A stretch of DNA of 64,000 bases from an uncultured Gammaproteobacteria bacterium (GCA_964430295.1 CAYSEV010000002.1:7024-71023), one strand, 5' to 3'; positions 12,870-63,886 are shown, numbered from the stretch's first letter. Notes: generated by a model from the letters alone, not told the origin. Program-made: numbers and translations.

Positions 12870-14474
12870 ATGGCCATAGCTCACCCCCAAACAAAAACGT
12901 TAAGTGAGTTGATTTCTAAAAAAAGATATGTCGTTCCTACATATCAGCGACCATATGCGTGGGAGTTAGATCAAGCATCGGAGCTATGGGAAGATATTAG
13001 AAATAATACTCCCTCATATTTTCTTGGCATATTAATATTGAGGCAAAAAAAAGATAGTGAATATGAAATAGTTGATGGGCAACAAAGATTAGCAACACTT
13101 ATATTATTATTACGAGCTGTTGTTGAAGTTTTTGGAGAGGGATCACAAGAAGGAATCGAGATACAAAATGGATATATCCATCAAAAAGGGCCACTTGAAA
13201 AAAATGCAGAGTTCACGCTGACATTAAGCAAAAGAGATAAGTTAAAATTCGAGGCGTTACTTACAGGCGGCGACTATATAGCTAAAAGGAAGTATGCGTC
13301 ATGGCAAAGATTGGAAAAAGTAAAAAAATTTTTTGTATCTAAACTTGAAGAATTAAAAAACACTGAGGGGGTTTCTGGCATAACTACATTTATATTAGAT
13401 CGGGTAATGAAATTAAATTTTATAGATGTTCAAGTTGAAAATGACAGCGATGTCTATTTGTTTTTTGAAACATTAAATGATCGTGGAATGGACTTATCGA
13501 TAGCAGATTTATTAAAAAATCGTATTTGCGCTTTATCATCTAATCCTATATTTCCTCCTGACGACGATGCAAAAAGAGTAGACGATATTACTGAACTATT
13601 AGGTGAAGGCTCAATTAAAAGCTTCTTGCTTCACTATTGTTGGGCATATTCAGATGAAAAAAATCCACCTCCCCGAAAAGCTCTTATGGATTGGTTTAAT
13701 AAAGTTATCAACATACAAAAGAATAGTTTTCTATCGAAATTAGAAGAAAATGCGCTAGCTTACTCATATTTAATTAAGCCAGACCAATTAAGAGGAAAAG
13801 AAAAAGAAGTGCTTGTAAATCTGAAAGTATTAGGTGCAACTAGATGCTATCCACTCTTACTGATAGGAAAACATATTCTGTCAGAATCCGATTTCATAAA
13901 ATTATGTAGAGCAGTTGAAATTCTAACCTTTAGACATAGTACAGTATGTAAAAAAGACTCAAAAATTCTAGAGTCTGTTTACTATGATCTTGCTAAGGAT
14001 CTTAAAAAAGGTGTTTCAATCGATAAAATTCTTGGAATATTAAATATACAAAGTAAGAAAATATCTGATGAAACTTTTTTAGCTTTATTTAATGAATATA
14101 TACCAGAGAATCATAAGGTAGCAAAATATGTATTATTGAAAATAGAAGATTCGTATAACGATGGTAAATCAACTCCCCCAGATAGAGAAAAAGCAACGTT
14201 GGAGCATATTTTAGCCCAAAAACTAGATTGGATAGATAAAGATGAATATGTCGAAAGATTAGGAAATCTGACTTTATTATCTGAGCCATTAAATAGAGAA
14301 GCTGGCATGAAAGAATTTATATACAAAAGGGATTACTACACAAAAGAAATTGGAATTCAAATAACATTAGAATTATTAAAATATTCTGATTTCACGGTAG
14401 AAACAATCAAAGAAAGGCAAAGTCTATTTGCAAAACATGCGATTAAAATTTGGAATCCAGATATTCTAAAATAA
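12870..14474 (+). CDS. GmrSD-family type IV (modification-dependent) restriction endonuclease, single chain DUF262 + DUF1524
   Basis: N-terminal DUF262 signatures YVVPTYQRPYAWE and VDGQQRLATL. C-terminal DUF1524 His-Me finger signatures ATLEHILAQK and LGNLTLLSEPLNREAG. The gene looks markedly more AT-rich than its neighbours by eye, with non-coding DNA on both sides. Confidence 0.75.
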   Translation: MAIAHPQTKTLSELISKKRYVVPTYQRPYAWELDQASELWEDIRNNTPSYFLGILILRQKKDSEYEIVDGQQRLATLILLLRAVVEVFGEGSQEGIEIQNGYIHQKGPLEKNAEFTLTLSKRDKLKFEALLTGGDYIAKRKYASWQRLEKVKKFFVSKLEELKNTEGVSGITTFILDRVMKLNFIDVQVENDSDVYLFFETLNDRGMDLSIADLLKNRICALSSNPIFPPDDDAKRVDDITELLGEGSIKSFLLHYCWAYSDEKNPPPRKALMDWFNKVINIQKNSFLSKLEENALAYSYLIKPDQLRGKEKEVLVNLKVLGATRCYPLLLIGKHILSESDFIKLCRAVEILTFRHSTVCKKDSKILESVYYDLAKDLKKGVSIDKILGILNIQSKKISDETFLALFNEYIPENHKVAKYVLLKIEDSYNDGKSTPPDREKATLEHILAQKLDWIDKDEYVERLGNLTLLSEPLNREAGMKEFIYKRDYYTKEIGIQITLELLKYSDFTVETIKERQSLFAKHAIKIWNPDILK

Positions 14475-54263: not shown

Positions 54264-54361
54264 TGTACGTAAAATCATCGGATAACATCTGCAATTAGTG
54301 TAAATAATTTCATCTATAATTGAGTCTGTTTATGCGTTATAGAAGCATATATAATTATGCA

Positions 54362-55429
54362 ATGATCCCTCAACATATAAGCATCGTAATCGCAACATAT
54401 AATTCAGAGAAAACACTACCATTGGTTCTTGCCTCTATTAGAAATCAAACATATCCCAGAAAACATATAGAAATTGTAATAGTTGATGGAGGGTCTGTTG
54501 ATGCCACACTTCAAATTGCCCGACAATATAAATGCAAAATAATCCATAATCCAAATGTAGAACCGCTATACGCAAAATATCTTGGGTTTATTCATTCGAA
54601 AGGCAAATATATTGAGTATATTGATCATGATGAGGTTATTGTAAATGAAAATAGTATTCGTACCCGTATTCATATCTTTGAAAAATTTTCTGATGTAAAA
54701 GCCCTTACAGGTTGCGGCTATTATAGTCCAAGTGGATACCATATTATTAACAGTTATATAAGTGAATTTGGAGATCCCTTTTCCTTTTTTATGTATTCAT
54801 TAACAAAACATGCAGATTTTTTTATGTCGGTTATGAAATCCAGATATACAACGAGTCTGGATAATGATGAGTTTACGATATTTGATTTGAAGGGAAGTTC
54901 AGAAATGCCGCTTGTTGAGTTGGTAGCGGGTGGCGGGATGGTTGATCGTGCATATATGTTAAAAAATTTCCCGGAATTGAAAACAAAACAGTATCTTTTG
55001 CCGCATCTGTTATATCTGTTACTCCAAAAATCTACGATGTTGGCTATTACAAAACATGACCCGATAATACACTATTCTTCGGATACAATAAAAAGTTATA
55101 TGCATAAGCTTATATGGCGAATAAAAAATAATATATTTTTTAAAAAAACTACTGGAATTTCAGGATTTTCAGGTCGGATTGGCAGTAATACATTGAGAGT
55201 CAAATTACGTAAATTTTTATTTATTCCATACGCACTCAGTATTATTATTCCTTGTATAGATGCTATAAGGCTTATATTTTCCAGGAAAAATATCGGGTAT
55301 ATAATACACGTTCCGTTAACCTTTATAACTGCAGTGCTTATCATTTATTTTTCATTTTTAAAGCTATTTGGAATTCAGATGCAGCTTCAAAATTATGATG
55401 GAACCGTCAGAGCATATGAACATGCGTAA
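54362..55429 (+). CDS. GT2 glycosyltransferase with C-terminal membrane anchor (paralog of 45524)
   Basis: MIPQHISIVIATYNSEKTLPLVLASIRNQTYPRKHIEIVIVDGGSVDAT. C-terminal FIPYALSIIIPCIDAIRLIF helices parallel LFVPYAITIVAPTINSIYNAV in 45524. The listed TTG start at 54320 is less likely. Confidence 0.65.
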   Translation: MIPQHISIVIATYNSEKTLPLVLASIRNQTYPRKHIEIVIVDGGSVDATLQIARQYKCKIIHNPNVEPLYAKYLGFIHSKGKYIEYIDHDEVIVNENSIRTRIHIFEKFSDVKALTGCGYYSPSGYHIINSYISEFGDPFSFFMYSLTKHADFFMSVMKSRYTTSLDNDEFTIFDLKGSSEMPLVELVAGGGMVDRAYMLKNFPELKTKQYLLPHLLYLLLQKSTMLAITKHDPIIHYSSDTIKSYMHKLIWRIKNNIFFKKTTGISGFSGRIGSNTLRVKLRKFLFIPYALSIIIPCIDAIRLIFSRKNIGYIIHVPLTFITAVLIIYFSFLKLFGIQMQLQNYDGTVRAYEHA

Positions 55430-57671
55430 TTCCAACAAAATTTCATATAGTCAAATTATCGTATATCTTTGTGCTCTCGTGTTGTTCTTAATTCCTTTTT
55501 TTTGGTTTGAACCAGGGTATATAAATCTTGGTGGAGATGGCGGAAGACTTTATTTCTTGGATCCGTTGGCTGTTGCGAAAAGCGCTTTAAACTACACTAA
55601 TTCCGCCTATGGATATTCTTTTTCGTTCATCCCGTATCTTTATTTTTTGTATAGTATGCTTCAGGTTCTGCGGACACCAACAAATCTGATTGCCTTTGAA
55701 CACGGATTAAATTTATCTCTAAGCTTTTTATACATTGTCTTAATTCTCAGAGTATTTCTTTCAAACCATAAATATAAAAATCGTGTAATTATAAATGACT
55801 CTATAGGAATAACTGCGGGTGTTGCATATATTTCACTCATTACAAAAACCGGATGGCCTGTGGCGCTTCCGACACTAAATCAGATATTTTTAAACGTGAT
55901 GATTTTTTACCATATGCTTCAATATATACGCACATCGAAATTCAGACATCTAATTTCTATATGTCTTGTCACACTGGTGTTTTCAATTAATTTCGGATTG
56001 GGAAATGCGCCGCAATTGCTGTCTTTTTATCCGCTATCTCTGATATTTATTTATATCTATACGAGATATATAGAAAACATTCCGTTTCAATGGAAGAATA
56101 TATTTATACTGATACTAACGTTGGTGGGTATTCACAGTTTTCACATATTTCCAATTCTTATGTCTCTGTTTAATTCATCAAGCATAGTTCATTCTCAGGT
56201 CTTTAGCGAATCTGTGATAAAAAATGCGGGATTATTCTATTTTACTGAAAATCATGCGGCATCAGGAAAAATAAGCCGGGAATTATTTCAGTGGTGGCTT
56301 AGCAAAGATATATTGATTTATATCTTGCCTATCACAATCGTCGGCGGATTCTTATCCGGAAAATCAAAATTACTACTGTTACTTGGAAGCATGTTTTTGG
56401 GCACATTATTTCTAGTCTCTGCGAATATTACTGAAATAGGGGTGAAATTATATACATTATTTTTCTATATCCCGGGCTTTTCCATGTTTCGATCATTTAA
56501 TGAAAAGTGGTTTTATGTATTTGCATTTTATTATGTACTGTTATTTGGAATGTCACTGTATTATATGCTCAGAAGAAGACATATATGTTCTGTCATTTCC
56601 GTTTCGTTCATACTAACGTCATTGTTTATTTATCGATTGCTCCCATTTTTCAAAGGTGATGTTGTCCATTCCACGTTGTATATGTCCAATGGCGTATCAA
56701 GCGTTTTTACGGTTGATCCTGATTTAGTGGATAGTTTGTTATATGTTAAAAAACTTCCGAAAGACGGAAAAGTATTGACACTTCCGTTAACATTTCCATA
56801 CTTCCAAATATCGTATGGACAAAAGGGTGGTGCGTATGAAGGGATTTCGATGGTATCGAATATTGCCAACAGACAGGACTTTGCAGGGTTATGGTCATTC
56901 GGACCGTACGAGAAGCCAATGATAGAAGCCATACTATCAAAGGATTTTAATCAGATTAGACAGATACTTTCAATGCTCAATGTTCGATATATTTATAGGA
57001 ACTCTGATGACAGGGTTATGGACCGTTTTCCGAAATACCCATATGTGCCTATAAAAACATTTGAATCTAAAGATGATATACCCGCGATTAAAAATCAACG
57101 TGCATATGACGATTTTTTATCAGGTCTGCATGCAAAATTAATCTATCAAAAGGGGTTTTATAGCATATATGAACTCGATCAGCACATTGTTAGGCCACTT
57201 ATATATATTCCGGATTATATAAAAAGCACGGCAGATTACTCCGATACCAACTCGTTTTCATGGGCTTTTTTAGATACCCGTGATTGCAGAAAAATTTCAT
57301 GCGATGCGACAATATCCGGGATACCGAATATTTCATACACAAAAAAAAGTGAAACATTGTATGAAATTACCCTTGATATATCAAAACAAAAAAAACCGTT
57401 TCTTTTGGTGTTTACGCAGCCATATGTGTCTGATGTGCAGCTTTCACTGGATGAAAAAACGATTCAAAATACTTCAGATCATATTCTGGTGAATAATTAC
57501 GCTAACGGGTGGGTCATATATCCGGAAAAATATTCGTCAAATAAACGGTTGAAGGGTTTCATATACTTGCGTTCAATACGTAATGCATATATAGGAAGTA
57601 TTGTGTCCTTGATTTTTGTTTTTCTTGTACTGGCAGCATTTGTATTTTCGTACAAATATAAAAAATTATGA
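55416..57671 (+). CDS. Large polytopic membrane protein, unrecognised family (putative GT-C-like transferase or polymerase), paralog 1 of 3
   Basis: About 750 aa. N-terminal TM then FEPGYINLGGDGGRLYFLDP motif, many TM helices, then a large C-terminal soluble domain and a final TM anchor. The start is ambiguous (55395-55422). Confidence 0.5.
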   Translation: MNMRNSNKISYSQIIVYLCALVLFLIPFFWFEPGYINLGGDGGRLYFLDPLAVAKSALNYTNSAYGYSFSFIPYLYFLYSMLQVLRTPTNLIAFEHGLNLSLSFLYIVLILRVFLSNHKYKNRVIINDSIGITAGVAYISLITKTGWPVALPTLNQIFLNVMIFYHMLQYIRTSKFRHLISICLVTLVFSINFGLGNAPQLLSFYPLSLIFIYIYTRYIENIPFQWKNIFILILTLVGIHSFHIFPILMSLFNSSSIVHSQVFSESVIKNAGLFYFTENHAASGKISRELFQWWLSKDILIYILPITIVGGFLSGKSKLLLLLGSMFLGTLFLVSANITEIGVKLYTLFFYIPGFSMFRSFNEKWFYVFAFYYVLLFGMSLYYMLRRRHICSVISVSFILTSLFIYRLLPFFKGDVVHSTLYMSNGVSSVFTVDPDLVDSLLYVKKLPKDGKVLTLPLTFPYFQISYGQKGGAYEGISMVSNIANRQDFAGLWSFGPYEKPMIEAILSKDFNQIRQILSMLNVRYIYRNSDDRVMDRFPKYPYVPIKTFESKDDIPAIKNQRAYDDFLSGLHAKLIYQKGFYSIYELDQHIVRPLIYIPDYIKSTADYSDTNSFSWAFLDTRDCRKISCDATISGIPNISYTKKSETLYEITLDISKQKKPFLLVFTQPYVSDVQLSLDEKTIQNTSDHILVNNYANGWVIYPEKYSSNKRLKGFIYLRSIRNAYIGSIVSLIFVFLVLAAFVFSYKYKKL

Positions 57672-57997
57672 AATATCCCATGCATCGTTTCATGATATCG
57701 CTCTTATCTGTCTCGTTTTTTTTTCTGATATTTTTCCTCGATGTAAAACATTTTTTCTCTTTTTCTGATGTCGCATTTATTGTGGCGATTTGTACCTATG
57801 TATTCTTTATAAATTTAGAGCGATATTCTTCGAAATTCACCTTTATTCTTACTATATATTTTGTTCTAATTATGGGAGTTTCATATCTGCAAAACGGATT
57901 TGATACAATAACAGAACGAATCGGTGAGTGGTTTTACATTTTTTTTGCCATAGGACTGATACAATACTCCCGTGAATTAAAAGATACGGATATATGA
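57668..57997 (+). CDS. Small 3-4 TM membrane protein (possibly GtrA-like polyprenol-P-sugar flippase subunit)
   Basis: 109 aa. FFINLERYSSKFTF loosely resembles the GtrA [FY]..N[RK]..TF motif. ATGA overlap with the upstream gene. Weak call. Confidence 0.35.
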   Translation: MKYPMHRFMISLLSVSFFFLIFFLDVKHFFSFSDVAFIVAICTYVFFINLERYSSKFTFILTIYFVLIMGVSYLQNGFDTITERIGEWFYIFFAIGLIQYSRELKDTDI

Positions 57998-58920
57998 AAT
58001 GCATAATTTGTACTTCTACTGATTGGAAATATTTATTTGATTCAAGAGATCGGATGTTTGATATGGGGGGAAAATTTTCCATGTTTAAATGTCTCTCATG
58101 CGGGTTTGCCCGATTATCTCCAAAACCTACAAACAAGCAACTTAAAAAATATTACCCTTCTTCAAATTATTACTCATATGGTGAAAATGAGAATTTAAGC
58201 TTCTTCGGAAAACTTCGCAGATATTTGGTGCTTCATTATTATCATCCGGATTTAGTATCCCGGATTATAAGTTTATTTCTTCATGTTCCTGCAATGCCTT
58301 CATTTATTGCACATGGAAAGATTATGGACATAGGGTGCGGCAGTGGGGAAACGCTGCTGCTTCTTAAGGAATCAGGATGGGATGTATTTGGTATGGATAT
58401 AGATACAAACGCCATCAAGGTTGCAAAAAAAAGAGGGTTGAAGAATGTTCATATAGGGACATATGAAAGTCTCAATGAATACAAAGATAATTATTTTGAT
58501 GCCATACGTATGTATCACGTAATAGAGCATATAGATGATCCGATTAATTGCATGCGCCTTGCATACAAAAAACTTAAAAAAGGCGGAGAGATTATTATAG
58601 GTACTCCCAATATATCAAGTTTTATAGCATCGCTTATGAAACAATATTGGTATAATCTGGATAGTCCCAGACACTTGTACCTATTTTCTCCATATACGTT
58701 GACAAGAATAGCTCAAGTGAGTGAGTTTAAGGATTGTAGAATCCGTTTTTCTTCCGCCGGGGGAATTATAGGCAGCATCCAATATCTTATACGCGAATAT
58801 ACTTCATCTCATATTGATTTGGTCAATAGGCCACTGTTAATACTTATGCTGTATCCTTTTGAAAAATTATTGGATTTTTTCAAAAAAGGCGATGTGATAA
58901 TCTTATCCGCAAAAAAATAA
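57994..58920 (+). CDS. Class I SAM-dependent methyltransferase with N-terminal Cys4 zinc-ribbon
   Basis: CIICTSTDW...FKCLSCGF (C-x2-C...C-x2-C), then the MDIGCGSGETLLLL motif I and DAIRMYHVIEHIDDP. Confidence 0.65.
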   Translation: MKCIICTSTDWKYLFDSRDRMFDMGGKFSMFKCLSCGFARLSPKPTNKQLKKYYPSSNYYSYGENENLSFFGKLRRYLVLHYYHPDLVSRIISLFLHVPAMPSFIAHGKIMDIGCGSGETLLLLKESGWDVFGMDIDTNAIKVAKKRGLKNVHIGTYESLNEYKDNYFDAIRMYHVIEHIDDPINCMRLAYKKLKKGGEIIIGTPNISSFIASLMKQYWYNLDSPRHLYLFSPYTLTRIAQVSEFKDCRIRFSSAGGIIGSIQYLIREYTSSHIDLVNRPLLILMLYPFEKLLDFFKKGDVIILSAKK

Positions 58921-58923
58921 ATA

Positions 58924-61149
58924 ATGAAACGTGCAGATACATTCAGGCAATATATTTTGAGATATTGGCAAATTGTACTTCTTATAAGTATAACCATATC
59001 AATTTTTCTGATCCCTAATTTATTTTGGGGTAACCTGTATCAGGTGGGCGGGGACGATGGGAGATTTTACTATATATTCCCCTGGGAGTATCTGAAAAAT
59101 TTTTCATTTAATATTATTTCAAATAATACACTTGGCGGAAATATGGGATACTTGCCTGTAAGTTATTCCGCCCCGACTATATTTGTTTTATATATATTAA
59201 AAACCTTGTTTCCTGCTTTTAATACACAACTTCTTGCGTATGGTCTAATACTATCAATAAGTTTTTTATTCATGTATCTGTTCTTGCATGAAGTTATTGC
59301 TTCCAAATCTGTTTATTTATATTGGGGAAGATTATTAACCTCTATATATTATATTTTTTCTGTTTACCTCACAAAAACATTTTATCAGCATCAGCTTATA
59401 TCTATGTACTCAATTATGGTGTTACCGGTCTGTCTGTATCTATTTACAGTCGGAGTTAAAAAAATGTCATATAAATATATCATTGCCTCATCATTATTTT
59501 ATTCAATATTTAGTTCCACATTGTACGGTCTACCTTGGCTATTGCCTTCAGTCATCACACTTATTCCTTTCCTTATATATCTGCAGAATCATAATCGATC
59601 GATGTTTATAAAAGCGTTATTTATCTTTGTGATTTTTACTGTTCTTTGTAACATGTATTGGATAATTCATTATGTAGTTCCGTTTATAACAAAATCAGGT
59701 GGAGATGTTTTTACAGATCACTTACTTTCCGATACGTATCGGGAACAAAATAATGATGCTATCGCCGCGATAACCCGTCTAAATGCCCCTGTAAATCAAC
59801 TTATAAACCACCTGCGTACGTCATGGATGGATAGGGAGAGTGTTACTCTACATGAAACAATTGGTGTTGTATATTTTTTGGTTGCTTTATATGCCGGATC
59901 TTTACTTCGACTTGTGAGAAGGTCATCACAAATACTGTTTTTAACAGTATTTACAGGATTTTGTCTAACACTATTTTTTGTAACTCCTAACTTCGGCGAG
60001 ATGAATTTGAAGATTTTTCAATTTTTAAACAATACTATTCCTTTCTTCGTCATGTTTAGAAATATGTATGATAAATTTGCGCTGGCAACAGCATTTCAAT
60101 ATGCATTTATGGTGTATATCACGTTATATATATTCGGCGAGGCAAGAATGAATAATATCTGCAAGTATTTTATTCTACTAACACTCTGTATTGTTACCGG
60201 TATAAAGATGTATCCTTATGTATTTGTTCAGTATTCAGATGATATATATTCAACAAGAATAAGTGGACGATTAAATACCGATTTTTTTTCTTTAATGAGT
60301 TACGTTGGACAAATGGATACAACCTCCAGATTTCTTTGGTATCCGATGACGTATCCCGGATACATATTTATACGGGATGCGGTTGGGACACATAATTTTT
60401 ATACCGGATTATCACCAATGCAAATTTTAGCAAAAAAAAGCGATATAGCAGGATACTATGGTATTCAAACACAGTCTAAGCCTGATTTAAACGCAGTAAT
60501 ATATGACTCGTTAAAACGTCATGAATATGAAATTATTGGGAAACGCCTTCAGGAGCAAAATATAGGTTTTATTATAGAAAATAAGGATATTCCTGATACA
60601 TTGGCTCTGAAATTTTTGGATGAAAACGGATTTATGTCCAGTCAGTCATCAGAGTATTTTCATGAAATAAAAGGGGATAAAATAAAGGACTTTGGAACAT
60701 CATATTCGTTATATGCTATTCAGAAAAAATACCTGTCACAGACAGTTTCCATGGCTGATTCTGTCCAACTTGATAGTGTAAATACACAACAGGTCAAGTT
60801 TAAGAAATTACAAAACGGATCATACGATATGTACATTGACCGATTAAAAGATTCGAAATATCTGATTTTTTTGGAGCCGTACAATCCTTTATGGAACATC
60901 CGTCTCGTAGATGGTAATAGGAAAAAAACGATATCCATACGACCAGCCAGAGCTTTTGACTATGGGAATGTATGGAAACTGGATTCGAAAGAGCTTCTTT
61001 CCCGCTATCCTGATATGTTGAAGAAGAATTCTGACGGAACTATTTCTATGCACGCTGAAATTATATTTTCACCTGCGAAATATTCATTGCCATTTCTTTC
61101 AATGAGCATACTTACAGGCCTGATCGGCTTACTTATTATATTTTTATAA
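58924..61149 (+). CDS. Large polytopic membrane protein, unrecognised family, paralog 2 of 3
   Basis: 741 aa. LIPNLFWGNLYQVGGDDGRFYYIFP parallels FEPGYINLGGDGGRLYFLDP of 55416. Same overall architecture, including a C-terminal TM anchor. Confidence 0.55.
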   Translation: MKRADTFRQYILRYWQIVLLISITISIFLIPNLFWGNLYQVGGDDGRFYYIFPWEYLKNFSFNIISNNTLGGNMGYLPVSYSAPTIFVLYILKTLFPAFNTQLLAYGLILSISFLFMYLFLHEVIASKSVYLYWGRLLTSIYYIFSVYLTKTFYQHQLISMYSIMVLPVCLYLFTVGVKKMSYKYIIASSLFYSIFSSTLYGLPWLLPSVITLIPFLIYLQNHNRSMFIKALFIFVIFTVLCNMYWIIHYVVPFITKSGGDVFTDHLLSDTYREQNNDAIAAITRLNAPVNQLINHLRTSWMDRESVTLHETIGVVYFLVALYAGSLLRLVRRSSQILFLTVFTGFCLTLFFVTPNFGEMNLKIFQFLNNTIPFFVMFRNMYDKFALATAFQYAFMVYITLYIFGEARMNNICKYFILLTLCIVTGIKMYPYVFVQYSDDIYSTRISGRLNTDFFSLMSYVGQMDTTSRFLWYPMTYPGYIFIRDAVGTHNFYTGLSPMQILAKKSDIAGYYGIQTQSKPDLNAVIYDSLKRHEYEIIGKRLQEQNIGFIIENKDIPDTLALKFLDENGFMSSQSSEYFHEIKGDKIKDFGTSYSLYAIQKKYLSQTVSMADSVQLDSVNTQQVKFKKLQNGSYDMYIDRLKDSKYLIFLEPYNPLWNIRLVDGNRKKTISIRPARAFDYGNVWKLDSKELLSRYPDMLKKNSDGTISMHAEIIFSPAKYSLPFLSMSILTGLIGLLIIFL

Positions 61150-61152
61150 CAT

Positions 61153-62124
61153 ATGAAGCGTATTGGAATGCATTTAGCGATTGTCATTATACTTTTACTA
61201 ATTGGTTCATGTATGTCTCTTATTTTCTACCGTGAAGTGCATTACACTGCTATACAGGTGTATGAACATAGAAATATTGAGAATGAAGGACCTCTTTTAA
61301 AAAATAGTACAATTCGTGGAGAAGTCACTTCTGTATATGACAATTTTGGTACAGTAAAAATTCGTGTTAACACATTTGGCAGATTCAATTATGACACGAT
61401 TCATTTCCGATTACGGGAAAAGGGGACACAGGAGTGGATTGTGAAGAATTCGTATGCAGTAGATACATTTAGAAATAAACTTCTATATGGTTTTGGCTTT
61501 CCTATATTCCGGAATTCGGCTGGTAAGACGTACGAATTTGAACTCACGTCCGATACTGGAACACCCGATAATTCGATAGGGTTTTATACAGGAAAGTATT
61601 CCTTGGCTACTCAGTATGTTTTTTCAAAAAATACATTAATGAATAACCCTGAAAAAATGCCCGTATTTTTGAAGACAAAGATAGTAAGCCTGATTTCGGA
61701 CCCGTTTGTCCTGTTATATTATGCGATTTTTCTGTTGCCTGCAGTACTATATTCGTGTTTATTCTTATGTAAAAACGCGATACACCTTTATGCTATAGAG
61801 TTTTTTTCATTTTTATATATGCTTATTGCGTACATGTTTATACCAATTGCCATATCTTGGGATACTATATTGTTTATTGTCTTTTCCGCAGTTTTTATAT
61901 TCGAAGCTCAGTCATATTTTGTAATAACAAATAAAAATCACGTTTCCCGTGGTTCTTTCATAGCCTCTCATATGTACCATTTACCAATGCTGCTTATAGG
62001 TATTATGCTTTGGAATGTTGCTATAAAGAATGATCTTGTAGCAAATCGGGCGGCAATAGGCGTTTTTTACCTTACTGTTTTATCGTTGATATTATCGTAT
62101 AAGGAAGTACTATATAACAAATAA
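61153..62124 (+). CDS. Membrane protein of unknown function (N-terminal TM, extracytoplasmic domain, C-terminal 5-6 TM bundle)
   Basis: 323 aa, translationally coupled to its neighbours. No recognisable motif. Confidence 0.45.
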   Translation: MKRIGMHLAIVIILLLIGSCMSLIFYREVHYTAIQVYEHRNIENEGPLLKNSTIRGEVTSVYDNFGTVKIRVNTFGRFNYDTIHFRLREKGTQEWIVKNSYAVDTFRNKLLYGFGFPIFRNSAGKTYEFELTSDTGTPDNSIGFYTGKYSLATQYVFSKNTLMNNPEKMPVFLKTKIVSLISDPFVLLYYAIFLLPAVLYSCLFLCKNAIHLYAIEFFSFLYMLIAYMFIPIAISWDTILFIVFSAVFIFEAQSYFVITNKNHVSRGSFIASHMYHLPMLLIGIMLWNVAIKNDLVANRAAIGVFYLTVLSLILSYKEVLYNK

Positions 62125-62125
62125 T

Positions 62126-63886
62126 ATGCAGAAGTATTTCGCCTTTGGTGATGCACCGTTTTTTTTTCCGGAACAAATATCAGATATTTCCTGGATTCCC
62201 CGTATTTGGGATCAATCTTACGCGTTTGGAAGGAGTATGATAGCTCAGCTTTGGATTGATTATCCTATCAGATTGTTCATTAAGCTTGCCTACATATTCG
62301 GACTTAATTGGTGGAGCATCGATAAGCTTTTATGGGTTGGAGCAGTGGTATTATCTATATTTTCTGTTTGGAAAATTTCAAAATATATCTTTCAATCTAG
62401 ATTTATAAGTTTGATATCTATATGTATTTATACATTCAATACATATGTGCTCATGTTATTTGATGGAGGGCAACGCGGTGTTATGTTAGCATATTCGTTT
62501 GTTCCCTTTATCCTATATAGATTTATATCTTCTATAGACCATGTATTTGACACAGGTCGTTTACCGCATCGAAAAAATATTCAAAATGGATTGTTATTGT
62601 CTATACTTATCGCATTTGACCTACGATTAACATATGTAGTCGTATTAATATTGATTGCGTATTGTGTAGGAGTCATGTATTTCAATGAGTATAAAAAGAA
62701 GCATTTCATGTCAAATCTTTTGCTGTTTTTTAAAACTATTTTTCCATCGTTCATAATCCCGCCGTTCATACATGCATATTGGATACTACCGATGGTTTTT
62801 GTGAAGGATGGGGTTTCGTTAGGGGAAGAGTATACAGGAGTCGGTATGTTAAAGTTTCTTAGCGTTGCTGACTTTTCTCATGCGTTTTCTCTATTACATC
62901 CGAATTGGCCTGAAAATTTATTCGGAAAAGTCTATTTCCTGCAACCTGAATTTTTAATCATTCCGCTTGTTGCCTTTGGATCTCTACTTACTATTAACAG
63001 TATAAGAACCCAATCGAGGCGAATTCGTAAACATATTATCTTTTTTTCGCTAGTATCTCTAGTTGGTGTCTTTTTGGCGAAAGGTGTTAGAGAACCATTT
63101 GGAAGTCTATATGTTTGGGCTTTTAGTACTATACCAGGATTTGTAATGTTTCGTGATCCTACAAAATTCTATCTTTTAATAGCATTGGGATATTCATTGC
63201 TTATTCCATATGCATTATATAGTTTCGCTACATGGGTGCAGCGGCACATACATCGTCCAACGGGAAAATATGCCATTATTCTGCAATTTTTTCTGATATG
63301 GGTGGGGTTGCTGCGATCAATTTTTCTGGGGGGGGTGAGCGGTAATGTTTCACCTAAAATGCTTCCGACTGAGTATATACATTTAAAAAATACTCTCGTA
63401 GCTGATAAAGAAGCATCACGTGTATTATGGCTGCCGGTAGCGGAAAAATTCAGCTATGCTTCAGACATACACCCAATTATCACATCTGAGTCTTTATTTA
63501 ATACTGCATCTGTTTCCGGCATACTTGAAGCAATCAGTTCTCCAGATTTTGAGACAGTCTTGAAGAAATCAGGAATTAAATACGTTGTTATTCCAAGCGA
63601 CGAATGGCAGAGAATATTTCTAAAGGAATATACGTATGACGAGAATCTTAGAAACCAGATAATTCATGCGTTAGAGTCAAAAAAAATAGTTCGGGATACT
63701 TCATATGCACGCTTGGCTGTATTTAGGAATACTGAGTATACATTCGAGCCACATAAACCTGCATTCGTTGACTTACAGGAAGTATGGATGTATAGAGGGT
63801 TAGGTATTAGCGGTATAGCACTCGTTATAAGTTTGATACTCATTATGATACCAAAAAAAGATAATCATGATAGAATAAATGAATGA
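62126..63886 (+). CDS. Large polytopic membrane protein, unrecognised family, paralog 3 of 3 (shorter)
   Basis: 586 aa. N-terminal [29 protein letters not shown] and a similar TM core to 55416 and 58924. Confidence 0.5.

Follow-up and report, generated by a model that had tools for sequence, protein, structure and literature searches.

Organization of the locus

The window analyzed here is a 64-kb stretch of DNA from a member of the Patescibacteria. It carries a cassette of tightly packed genes in the order GT2, A, small protein, methyltransferase, B, D, C, which is also kept in two related loci, L001 and L003. All ORFs of the cassette were found on the + strand at the coordinates given below, in agreement with the initial annotation.

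The first gene (54320..55429) encodes a GT2 glycosyltransferase of the GT-A fold with two predicted C-terminal transmembrane (TM) helices (Pfam Glycos_transf_2, E = 6.7e-20). Its 3' end overlaps the start of A, and in L001 and L003 a GT2 gene directly precedes the A-type gene as well. The NCBIfam and PDB matches of this protein are to generic GT2 only, and its assignment as a GtrB-type synthase was therefore dropped. The GT2 adjoining A is thus not specifically of the polyprenyl-phosphate-sugar synthase type, which counts against reading A, B and C as GT-C transferases.

Gene A (55416..57671; the NCBI gene call starts at 55395) encodes a protein of 751 aa. The ATG of the next gene overlaps its stop codon (ATGA); this gene (57668..57997) encodes a small protein of 109 aa with three TM helices, and its homologs are found directly after A-type genes in loci L001–L005. 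Stop and start codons overlap again at the junction with the methyltransferase gene (57994..58920). The encoded class I SAM-dependent methyltransferase, cytoplasmic and 308 aa long, matches Methyltransf_23 (E = 1.3e-25) and Methyltransf_11 (E = 7.4e-19) in Pfam and bears an N-terminal CxxC...CxxC motif; its interleaving with the membrane proteins was thus correctly noted at the outset. Methyltransferase genes adjoin the cassette in related loci, and L001 and L003 have one to three of them at the equivalent position. Then follow B (58924..61149, 741 aa), D (61153..62124, 323 aa), a membrane protein gene overlooked in the first list of interleaved genes, and C (62126..63886, 586 aa).

Orthologs of D follow the B-type genes in L001 and L003. 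The possibility that D and C are parts of a single split or fused gene was rejected, as their orthologs are separate genes with a GT2 gene between them in L003. Genes encoding proteins of 591 aa (L001) and 560 aa (L003) were initially taken for the orthologs of C; this assignment was revised, the true orthologs being the genes for 492 aa and 509 aa, respectively.

Architecture and conserved motifs

As had been described, each of the three proteins combines a core of several TM helices with an extracytoplasmic domain and a final TM helix. The predicted layout of A consists of TM1, the first extracytoplasmic loop (EL1), ten further TM helices, a periplasmic domain (approximately residues 413–719) and the terminal TM helix (720–749). 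B has the same architecture. In C the periplasmic domain is smaller (approximately 401–545), the terminal TM helix spans residues 546–574, and TM1 is missing. The N-terminal TM helix, ascribed earlier to all three proteins together with the glycine/aromatic-rich loop behind it, is therefore present in A and B and absent from C.

In A, the helix is followed by the motif GGDGGRLYFLDP (residues 39–50; 55530..55565, + strand). Its Asp41 is invariant among 54 homologs, and D37, G39, G40, R44, D49 and P50 are each conserved in at least 90% of them. The corresponding motif of B, also following the N-terminal TM helix, is GGDDGRFYYIFP (residues 42–53; 59047..59082, + strand), with G42, G43, D44 and D45 each retained in at least 90% of 48 homologs. 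C begins 8 residues ahead of a reduced motif, FGDAPFFFP (residues 7–15; 62144..62170, + strand), in which G8 and the conserved Asp9 occur in at least 90% of 47 homologs. Such a short N-terminus is typical of the C family: in 44 of its 47 members the protein starts 6–13 residues ahead of the conserved GD. Longer C-type relatives have 'IIGGDWP[YF]' directly behind an N-terminal TM helix, and therefore Asp9 of C corresponds to the EL1 position. Hence an acidic residue is conserved in the first loop after TM1 in A (D41) and B (D44/D45), and at the equivalent place in C (D9). EL1 is predicted to face outward. Since C has no TM1, the putative catalytic loop of this protein could reach the outer side of the membrane only in some unusual way, a point against its being a GT-C transferase.

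The second conserved region includes the A motif IPGFSMFRSF (residues 352–361; 56469..56498, + strand). In the A-family alignment P353, F355, F358 and R359 are invariant. The region is common to all three proteins, being aligned to residues 372–385 of B and 336–349 of C. The FR(D/N)xxK motif, as well as the EL1 Asp, is invariant or near-invariant in the A, B and C families.

An extracellular loop of GT-C enzymes usually bears a DxD motif or a modified form of it (PMC8035078). In AftD, D41, which lies in EL1, is essential (bioRxiv 10.1101/2019.12.22.885152). The essential residues of that enzyme are K39, D41, E251, K361 and D474; the Asp equivalent to D41 is conserved here, and K361 may have its counterpart in the FR(D/N)xxK motif of B and C.

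Relations among A, B and C

The three proteins had been regarded as paralogs of one family. This overstates their relationship. A and B are similar over 584 residues by BLASTP (E = 2e-17) and align over their full length at the profile level (A3 vs A1, hhalign: probability 100%, E = 7e-71, 684 columns). C is related to B with a BLASTP E-value of 1e-4 and not significantly to A; comparison of the A and C profiles (A1 vs A2) yields a probability of 97.4% and E = 9e-12. Judged from these alignments, A and B represent sister families and C a separate, more distant one, the homology of A and C being secure at the profile level only.

GT-C fold and database searches

In structural comparison the TM cores superpose on solved GT-C enzymes, with AftD as the top match for A. 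At the fold level A, B and C thus belong to the GT-C superfamily, a class of membrane glycosyltransferases that transfer sugars from lipid carriers to acceptors outside the cell. STT3 and PglB also rank high, and an OST-like identity was therefore considered; reading of the sequences by eye revealed no WWDYG-type motif. The confident match to a transporter or protease that would contradict the GT-C assignment was not obtained, the Foldseek probability for transporters being only about 0.1. It is highly improbable that A, B and C are transporters, or else Wzy-, WaaL- or EpsG-type enzymes that polymerise or ligate glycans. In favour of such roles are their polytopic nature, their position in a polysaccharide locus with Wzx-like flippases, and weak, scattered single matches to Wzy_C (1 of 47 C-type relatives) and EpsG (4 of 47 small proteins).

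At the sequence level the proteins escape curated collections. A, B and C have no match in Pfam, including PF09586, PF11847 and PF10131 at E ≤ 1, and no NCBIfam model reaches its cut-off for any of them. Sequence models of characterised GT-C families match neither A nor B. Single-sequence searches of PDB were empty with A and B, and the one with C returned noise alone (lysostaphin, E = 0.6–1.1). In profile searches of PDB, A1, A3, A5 and A8 produced nothing or noise, and A2 a marginal match to AftD (E = 0.45); a search with P0188, aimed at a longer alignment with AftD, yielded none. The A1 profile finds 5362 cluster representatives at E ≤ 0.001, of which 560 are at E ≤ 1e-30; a Pfam scan of all A1 members gave only noise. 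Among B relatives, 5 of 48 weakly match DUF6044. We found no literature on DUF6044 or on GT-C proteins in Patescibacteria. A, B and C are thus families recognised by no curated database and previously uncatalogued members of the GT-C superfamily, as the initial annotation had supposed in calling them GT-C-like glycosyltransferases of an unrecognised family.

Comparison with AftD, YfhO, PTPS_related and MmpA

The initial annotation saw no way of mapping the proteins to AftD or YfhO, but remote relations to both were found. Besides the structural match of A, the GT-C_AftD model PF11847 is matched at E ≤ 0.1 by 11 of 47 C-type relatives (best E = 7.5e-9) and by 2 of 48 B-type ones. The C-terminal module of A, that is, its beta-domain and terminal TM helix, is homologous to that of the YfhO-like paralogs encoded in the window (probability 96.2%, E = 2.3e-9). 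C aligns by hhalign over nearly its full length, 481 columns, with the four PTPS_related (PF10131) paralogs of the window (probability 91.3%, E = 9e-7). Together with the weak matches of a minority of relatives to PF11847, PF19510 or PF10131, these similarities speak for the view that A, B and C have simply diverged within one of the known families, YfhO, AftD or PTPS_related, with nothing new at the family level.

We consider this improbable. The window also contains three YfhO-like ORFs (7191, 10559 and 24907) that match PF09586 with E-values from 1e-19 to 1e-24 and four PTPS_related-like ORFs, all of them recognised by Pfam, whereas A, B and C match none of the three models even at E ≤ 1 and A-type relatives match none of them at E ≤ 0.1 (0 of 54). 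The TM cores of A and C fail to align with the YfhO paralogs at the profile level. The PF10131 paralogs retain TM1, unlike C; the PF10131 family is itself uncharacterised. Sequence identity of A, B and C to AftD (PDB 6w98, 6wbx) is 11–14%. AftD, the arabinofuranosyltransferase D of mycobacteria (Actinobacteria), is about 1400 aa long and has three periplasmic carbohydrate-binding modules and a C-terminal 5-TM bundle that binds an acyl carrier protein (bioRxiv 10.1101/2019.12.22.885152). These modules, the bundle and the acyl-carrier-protein partner are all absent here: the Patescibacteria proteins, of 586–751 aa, have a single periplasmic domain and just one TM anchor at the C-terminus, and C additionally lacks TM1. 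Finally, neither the partner module discussed below nor the loss of TM1 has been described for those families.

The only curated match of C is to the NCBIfam model NF053599, "MmpA family trehalose lipid delivery protein" (E = 2.8e-8); neither A nor B matches it. MmpA (NCgl2761 / Rv0226c) is homologous to the N-terminal region of AftD; it is described as transporting trehalose lipids, not as transferring glycosyl groups, and its authors proposed that it anchors a complex in the membrane (PMC8698533). By this parallel, and given that C has no TM1, the three proteins might be non-catalytic GT-C-derived scaffolds or lipid handlers, aiding glycolipid export rather than transfer. There is a small chance that this is so. 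The match, at 32.8 bits, lies far below the cut-off of 210 and is confined to residues 293–444, and MmpA, unlike C, keeps a TM helix or signal sequence at its N-terminus. In Mycobacteriales, MmpA is linked to the export of mycolate-trehalose lipids, and the window contains no recognisable genes of that pathway; around A, B and C lie genes for sugar nucleotides and glycosyltransferases rather than for lipid synthesis. The near-invariance or invariance of the EL1 Asp and FR(D/N)xxK in all three families is what active enzymes would show.

The 3-TM module and its pairing with A and B

The small protein had been called GtrA-like. This did not hold: GtrA (PF04138) is matched by none of the 47 members of its family at E ≤ 0.1, and five members tested show no match at E ≤ 1. 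The resemblance to GtrA is limited to the size and the three TM helices. The protein itself has no match in Pfam, NCBIfam or PDB; D34 and E83 are invariant among the 47 sequences.

In D, the N-terminal TM helix is followed by an extracytoplasmic domain (about 150 aa), and this by a TM region ending in a 3-TM module (residues 211–323). Pfam and NCBIfam scans of D gave no significant match. The D profile aligns with that of the small protein with a probability of 98.4% and E = 7.9e-15 (hhalign); this comparison is significant only with deeper profiles, shallow alignments being negative (probability 1.3%). In addition, the A4 HMM matches the C-termini of 13 D-type ORFs. By profile comparison, then, the 109-aa protein and the 3-TM module at the C-terminus of D are homologs.

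In 73 genome loci, the gene directly downstream of an A-type gene encodes the small module in 31 of 61 cases, and the gene directly downstream of a B-type gene is D-type in 13 of 17. The small protein thus typically comes after A-type genes, and D-type genes after B-type ones. Tentatively, the 3-TM module, which stands alone behind A-type genes and is joined to an extracytoplasmic domain in D, might be an obligate subunit of a new, two-component GT-C enzyme, serving either as a built-in non-GtrA flippase of the lipid-linked sugar or as a structural part of the active enzyme. TM1-less C-type proteins might moreover receive a helix in trans from the product of an adjacent gene. We regard this as a possible, rather unlikely, arrangement. 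Family and PDB searches revealed no similarity of the module to any known flippase.

Gene context and proposed function

The cassette had been placed at the end of a sugar-nucleotide locus. Sugar-nucleotide genes do lie upstream, but the locus does not end there, as an epimerase/dehydratase gene begins at about 63908, beyond C. The island encodes aminotransferases, a 3-dehydrogenase, acetyltransferases, a 2-epimerase and methyltransferases. Three DPM1/AglJ/ArnC-like GT2 genes (2405, 39010 and 40990) and two Wzx-like flippase genes were found in the 64-kb window; none of the GT2 and Wzx-like candidates reaches an equivalog cut-off.

Taken with the fold and the motifs, A, B and C are probably GT-C-fold integral-membrane glycosyltransferases encoded in a conserved Patescibacteria cassette. 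The proposed mechanism is modelled, by analogy, on multi-component transmembrane glycosylation systems (PF09586, YfhO), where, as in the cassette, genes for a GT2 enzyme, a GT-C enzyme and a small 3-TM membrane protein adjoin. The partner in YfhO-type systems is GtrA, whereas the small partner here is not of the GtrA family; moreover, D, the partner of B, adds an extracytoplasmic domain, and methyltransferase genes are embedded in the cassette, unlike in the YfhO-type system.

A, B and C most likely transfer polyprenyl-phosphate-linked sugars on the extracytoplasmic side. By the above analogy, modified nucleotide sugars would be made in the cytoplasm by enzymes of the island, GT-A enzymes would load the sugar onto polyprenyl phosphate, and the lipid-linked sugar would be flipped across the membrane. 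On the outer face, each GT-C enzyme would transfer the sugar to its acceptor, a glycopolymer or protein of the cell surface, using the conserved Asp of EL1. A would work with the 109-aa protein and B with D; these would be cognate subunits, either in an enzyme complex or as a dedicated lipid-sugar flippase. The terms "polymerase" and "methylated sugars", applied to these proteins before, derive from gene context alone.

About 19 GT-C genes are packed into 64 kb of this organism. Patescibacteria (candidate phyla radiation) have tiny genomes, and such a number of GT-C genes suggests that surface glycosylation is central to the episymbiotic lifestyle of this organism. With the A, B and C families defined, thousands of membrane proteins now labelled "hypothetical" could be annotated better. 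The conserved pairing with a shared 3-TM partner and the existence of a GT-C family without TM1 bear on how GT-C enzymes receive lipid-linked donors and on how much of the canonical fold is dispensable.

Composition of the cassette and its surroundings

Seven closely packed genes lie on the + strand within 54320–63886. They encode a family 2 glycosyltransferase (GT2; 54320–55429), membrane protein A (55416–57671, 751 aa), a small protein with three transmembrane (TM) helices (57668–57997, 109 aa), a SAM methyltransferase (57994–58920), membrane protein B (58924–61149, 741 aa), membrane protein D (61153–62124, 323 aa), which the initial annotation did not list, and membrane protein C (62126–63886, 586 aa). 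Start and stop codons overlap as ATGA at two junctions, A/small protein and small protein/methyltransferase. The N-terminus of the methyltransferase (residues 1–38; 57994–58110) carries a CxxC...CxxC pattern (C3, C6, C33, C36) that resembles a zinc ribbon and precedes the class I methyltransferase domain.

Upstream of the cassette are genes for two DegT-type aminotransferases, a UDP-GlcNAc 3-dehydrogenase-like oxidoreductase, hexapeptide and GNAT acetyltransferases, a WecB-like 2-epimerase and a GDP-fucose-synthase-like reductase. The cassette had been placed at the end of this sugar-nucleotide locus. The locus in fact extends beyond C, since a + strand gene for a Rossmann-type, NAD-dependent epimerase/dehydratase begins directly after it, at about 63908, and runs past the window end (64000).

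The whole window (1–64000) is a glycosylation island with about 19 GT-C-type membrane protein genes, which include four further paralog groups: PTPS_related-like (starting at 124 (partial), 733, 23292 (− strand), 32281 and 36390), YfhO-like (7191, 10559 and 24907 (−)), PMT_2-like (15764 (−), 18055, 19851 (−), 21566 (−), 27372, 29003 and 30683) and GT87-like (35248). The island is also rich in GT2 and GT4 genes. A GmrSD-type restriction endonuclease gene (12870–14474, +; Pfam GmrSD_N, E 1.9e-36, and GmrSD_C, E 1.1e-19) is located inside it, flanked by a YfhO-like gene and the PMT_2-like cluster.

Relationships among A, B and C

The three large membrane proteins had been described as paralogs. 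The homology of A and B is clear from sequence comparison: they are aligned by BLASTP over 584 residues with 23% identity (E 2e-17), and the alignment of their family profiles (54 and 48 homologs, respectively) spans the full length at a probability of 100% (E 7e-71). C is much more distant, being related to A at the profile level. BLASTP yields E 1e-4 for C against B and no significant match for C against A. Profile alignment of the A family with the C family extends over 431 columns (probability 97.4%, E 9e-12), and we therefore consider the A–C homology real. The N-terminal TM helix followed by a glycine/aromatic loop, ascribed to all three proteins, is present in A (residues 39–50) and B (42–53) and does not hold for C, which has no N-terminal TM helix.

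C begins 8 residues ahead of a reduced FGDAPFFFP motif, and the start is 6–13 residues ahead of the conserved GD in 44 of 47 C-type relatives. Longer C-type relatives (loci L002, L004 and L005) have a TM helix at the N-terminus; where enough sequence is available (L004, L005), it is followed by IIGGDWP[YF]. This places the GD of C at the canonical position after TM1, and the C-type subfamily of the window has thus lost TM1. Residues 1–61 of C (62126–62310) form a segment of about 60 residues equivalent to extracytoplasmic loop 1 (EL1), with the conserved Asp9; this segment would need access to the outer face with neither a TM helix nor a signal peptide preceding it.

Fold and family assignment

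Pfam models gave no match to A, B or C, and a Pfam scan of the A-type relatives gave a meaningful match in none of 54. The PDB was matched neither by the three sequences nor by the A and B profiles. AlphaFold2 models built with the family alignments reached a pTM of 0.90 for both A and C, with pLDDT values of 89.9 and 89.7, respectively. In Foldseek searches the A model matched AftD (E 7e-8, query TM-score 0.52), and transporters reached a probability of only about 0.1. The predicted structures thus settle the identity question in favor of a GT-C fold, and the fold searches contradict assignment of the three proteins to Wzy, WaaL or transporters.

Weak sequence links lead in the same direction. 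PF11847 (GT-C_AftD) is matched by 11 of 47 C-type relatives (best E 7.5e-9), and AftD is the best, marginal hit in a profile search of the PDB with the C family. C aligns with the four PTPS_related (PF10131) paralogs of the window (probability 91.3%), the C-terminal beta-domain and terminal TM helix of A align with its three YfhO (PF09586) paralogs (probability 96.2%), and DUF6044 is weakly matched by 5 of 48 B-type relatives. Plain membership of A, B and C in YfhO or AftD fails the HMM tests: these HMMs do not match them, yet Pfam does recognize seven ORFs of the window as YfhO-like or PTPS_related-like. Given the predicted fold and the weak links, A, B and C are uncatalogued branches of the AftD/YfhO/PTPS_related part of the GT-C superfamily.

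The topology of A was inferred by combining the DSSP string of the model, hydrophobicity and the positive-inside rule. The putative order is TM1 (residues 11–29), a long EL1 with amphipathic helices (30–87), TM2–7, EL4 (~253–298), TM8–9, EL5 bearing the IPGFxMFR motif (335–360), TM10–11, a periplasmic domain (413–719) and a terminal TM segment (720–749). In AftD, EL4 lies between TM7 and TM8, EL5 between TM9 and TM10, and the soluble domain follows 11 TM helices (bioRxiv 10.1101/2019.12.22.885152). The predicted layout of A is the same in the positions of EL4 and EL5 and in the 11 TM helices ahead of the soluble domain.

Invariant residues are D41 and R359 in the A family, K384 in the B family, and D249, R343, D344 and K347 in the C family. 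Conserved in at least 90% of sequences are D37, R44, D49, Q156, N160, H240 and H243 (A), D44, D45, R379, N380 and D383 (B), and D9, D165, H252 and H258 (C). The signature of GT-C catalysis is an acidic residue that is conserved in the first outer loop (PMC8035078), and D41 is essential in AftD (bioRxiv 10.1101/2019.12.22.885152). This conservation argues that A, B and C would be active enzymes rather than degenerate scaffolds. The sole NCBIfam match of C is MmpA (E 2.8e-8, far below the cut-off), which its authors report to be homologous to the N-terminal region of AftD (PMC8698533). The invariant loop Asp and the surrounding sugar genes nevertheless make a non-catalytic, MmpA-like role of the three proteins unlikely.

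Enzymes of this kind are known, and the families are uncatalogued. The A profile alone retrieves 5362 cluster representatives at E ≤ 1e-3, of which 560 remain at E ≤ 1e-30; no literature on the A, B or C families was found.

A common 3-TM module in the partner proteins

The HMM of the small protein matches the final ~100 residues of 13 D-type ORFs (E 1.9e-9 to 4e-4). With deeper profiles, residues 8–108 of the small protein align to residues 211–323 of D (probability 98.4%, E 7.9e-15). The module is free-standing next to A; the version next to B is joined to an N-terminal TM helix and an extracytoplasmic domain of ~150 aa. D34 and E83 of the module are invariant in 47 sequences. The label "GtrA-like" given to the small protein rested on size and TM count only; GtrA matches none of 47 family members. 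Matches of the module to other Pfam families were at noise level, and the PDB gave none. Taken together, gene pairing and module homology indicate that A and B each have a putative cognate partner, the 3-TM module being common to both. In the literature we found no description of such pairing or of a C-type family devoid of TM1.

Conservation of the cassette

Two related loci from other metagenomic genomes (L001 and L003) have the order GT2, A-type, small protein, one to three methyltransferases, B-type, D-type and C-type, with one additional GT2 gene in L003. L002, L004 and L005 also have small-protein homologs after their A-type genes. Scanned with the A profile, the GTDB species representatives yielded 73 loci, almost all from Patescibacteria; the hosts include Levybacteria, Gottesmanbacteria, Woesebacteria, Microgenomates, Parcubacteria, Falkowbacteria, Magasanikbacteria, Moraniibacteriota and Saccharimonadia. 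Many of the cassette-bearing TPA MAG records are titled "uncultured Gammaproteobacteria bacterium", probably a placeholder or mislabeled taxonomy.

In these loci, the gene that follows an A-type gene (n=61) encodes the small protein in 28 cases, a longer ORF with the same module in 3, another A/B-type protein in 14 (complete tandem arrays terminate in a small-protein gene), a C-type protein in 7, and another product or none in 9. B-type genes (n=17) are followed by D-type in 13 cases, C-type in 1, another A/B-type in 1, and other or none in 2. The module is N-terminal in ORFs of ~335–370 aa after the A-type gene (L009, 5048–6100; L010, 5129–6136; L026, 2910–4028), which hints at a fusion with a second domain, perhaps a methyltransferase. 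Long A-type variants (~1180–1260 aa) have an inserted or extended periplasmic region (L002, 18675–22340; L004, 13356–17150; L005, 8001–11537) and are followed by TM1-bearing C-type genes (~686 aa). Among the 73 loci, a small-module gene often precedes such long forms.

Proposed pathway

The scheme below is built on the predicted fold, homologies, motifs and gene linkage, which are the only parts of it that are shown. The island enzymes would make modified nucleotide sugars, amino or acetamido and possibly methylated; methylation is an idea taken solely from the methyltransferase genes adjoining the cassette. GT-A enzymes would charge polyprenyl phosphate with these sugars, and the window contains three DPM1/AglJ/ArnC-like GT2 genes (2405, 39010 and 40990). 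A flippase would carry the lipid-linked sugar outward. Candidates are the products of two Wzx-like genes (3144 and 39750) or the 3-TM module, for which this role is possible and unsupported. A, B and C would then transfer the sugars to surface acceptors.
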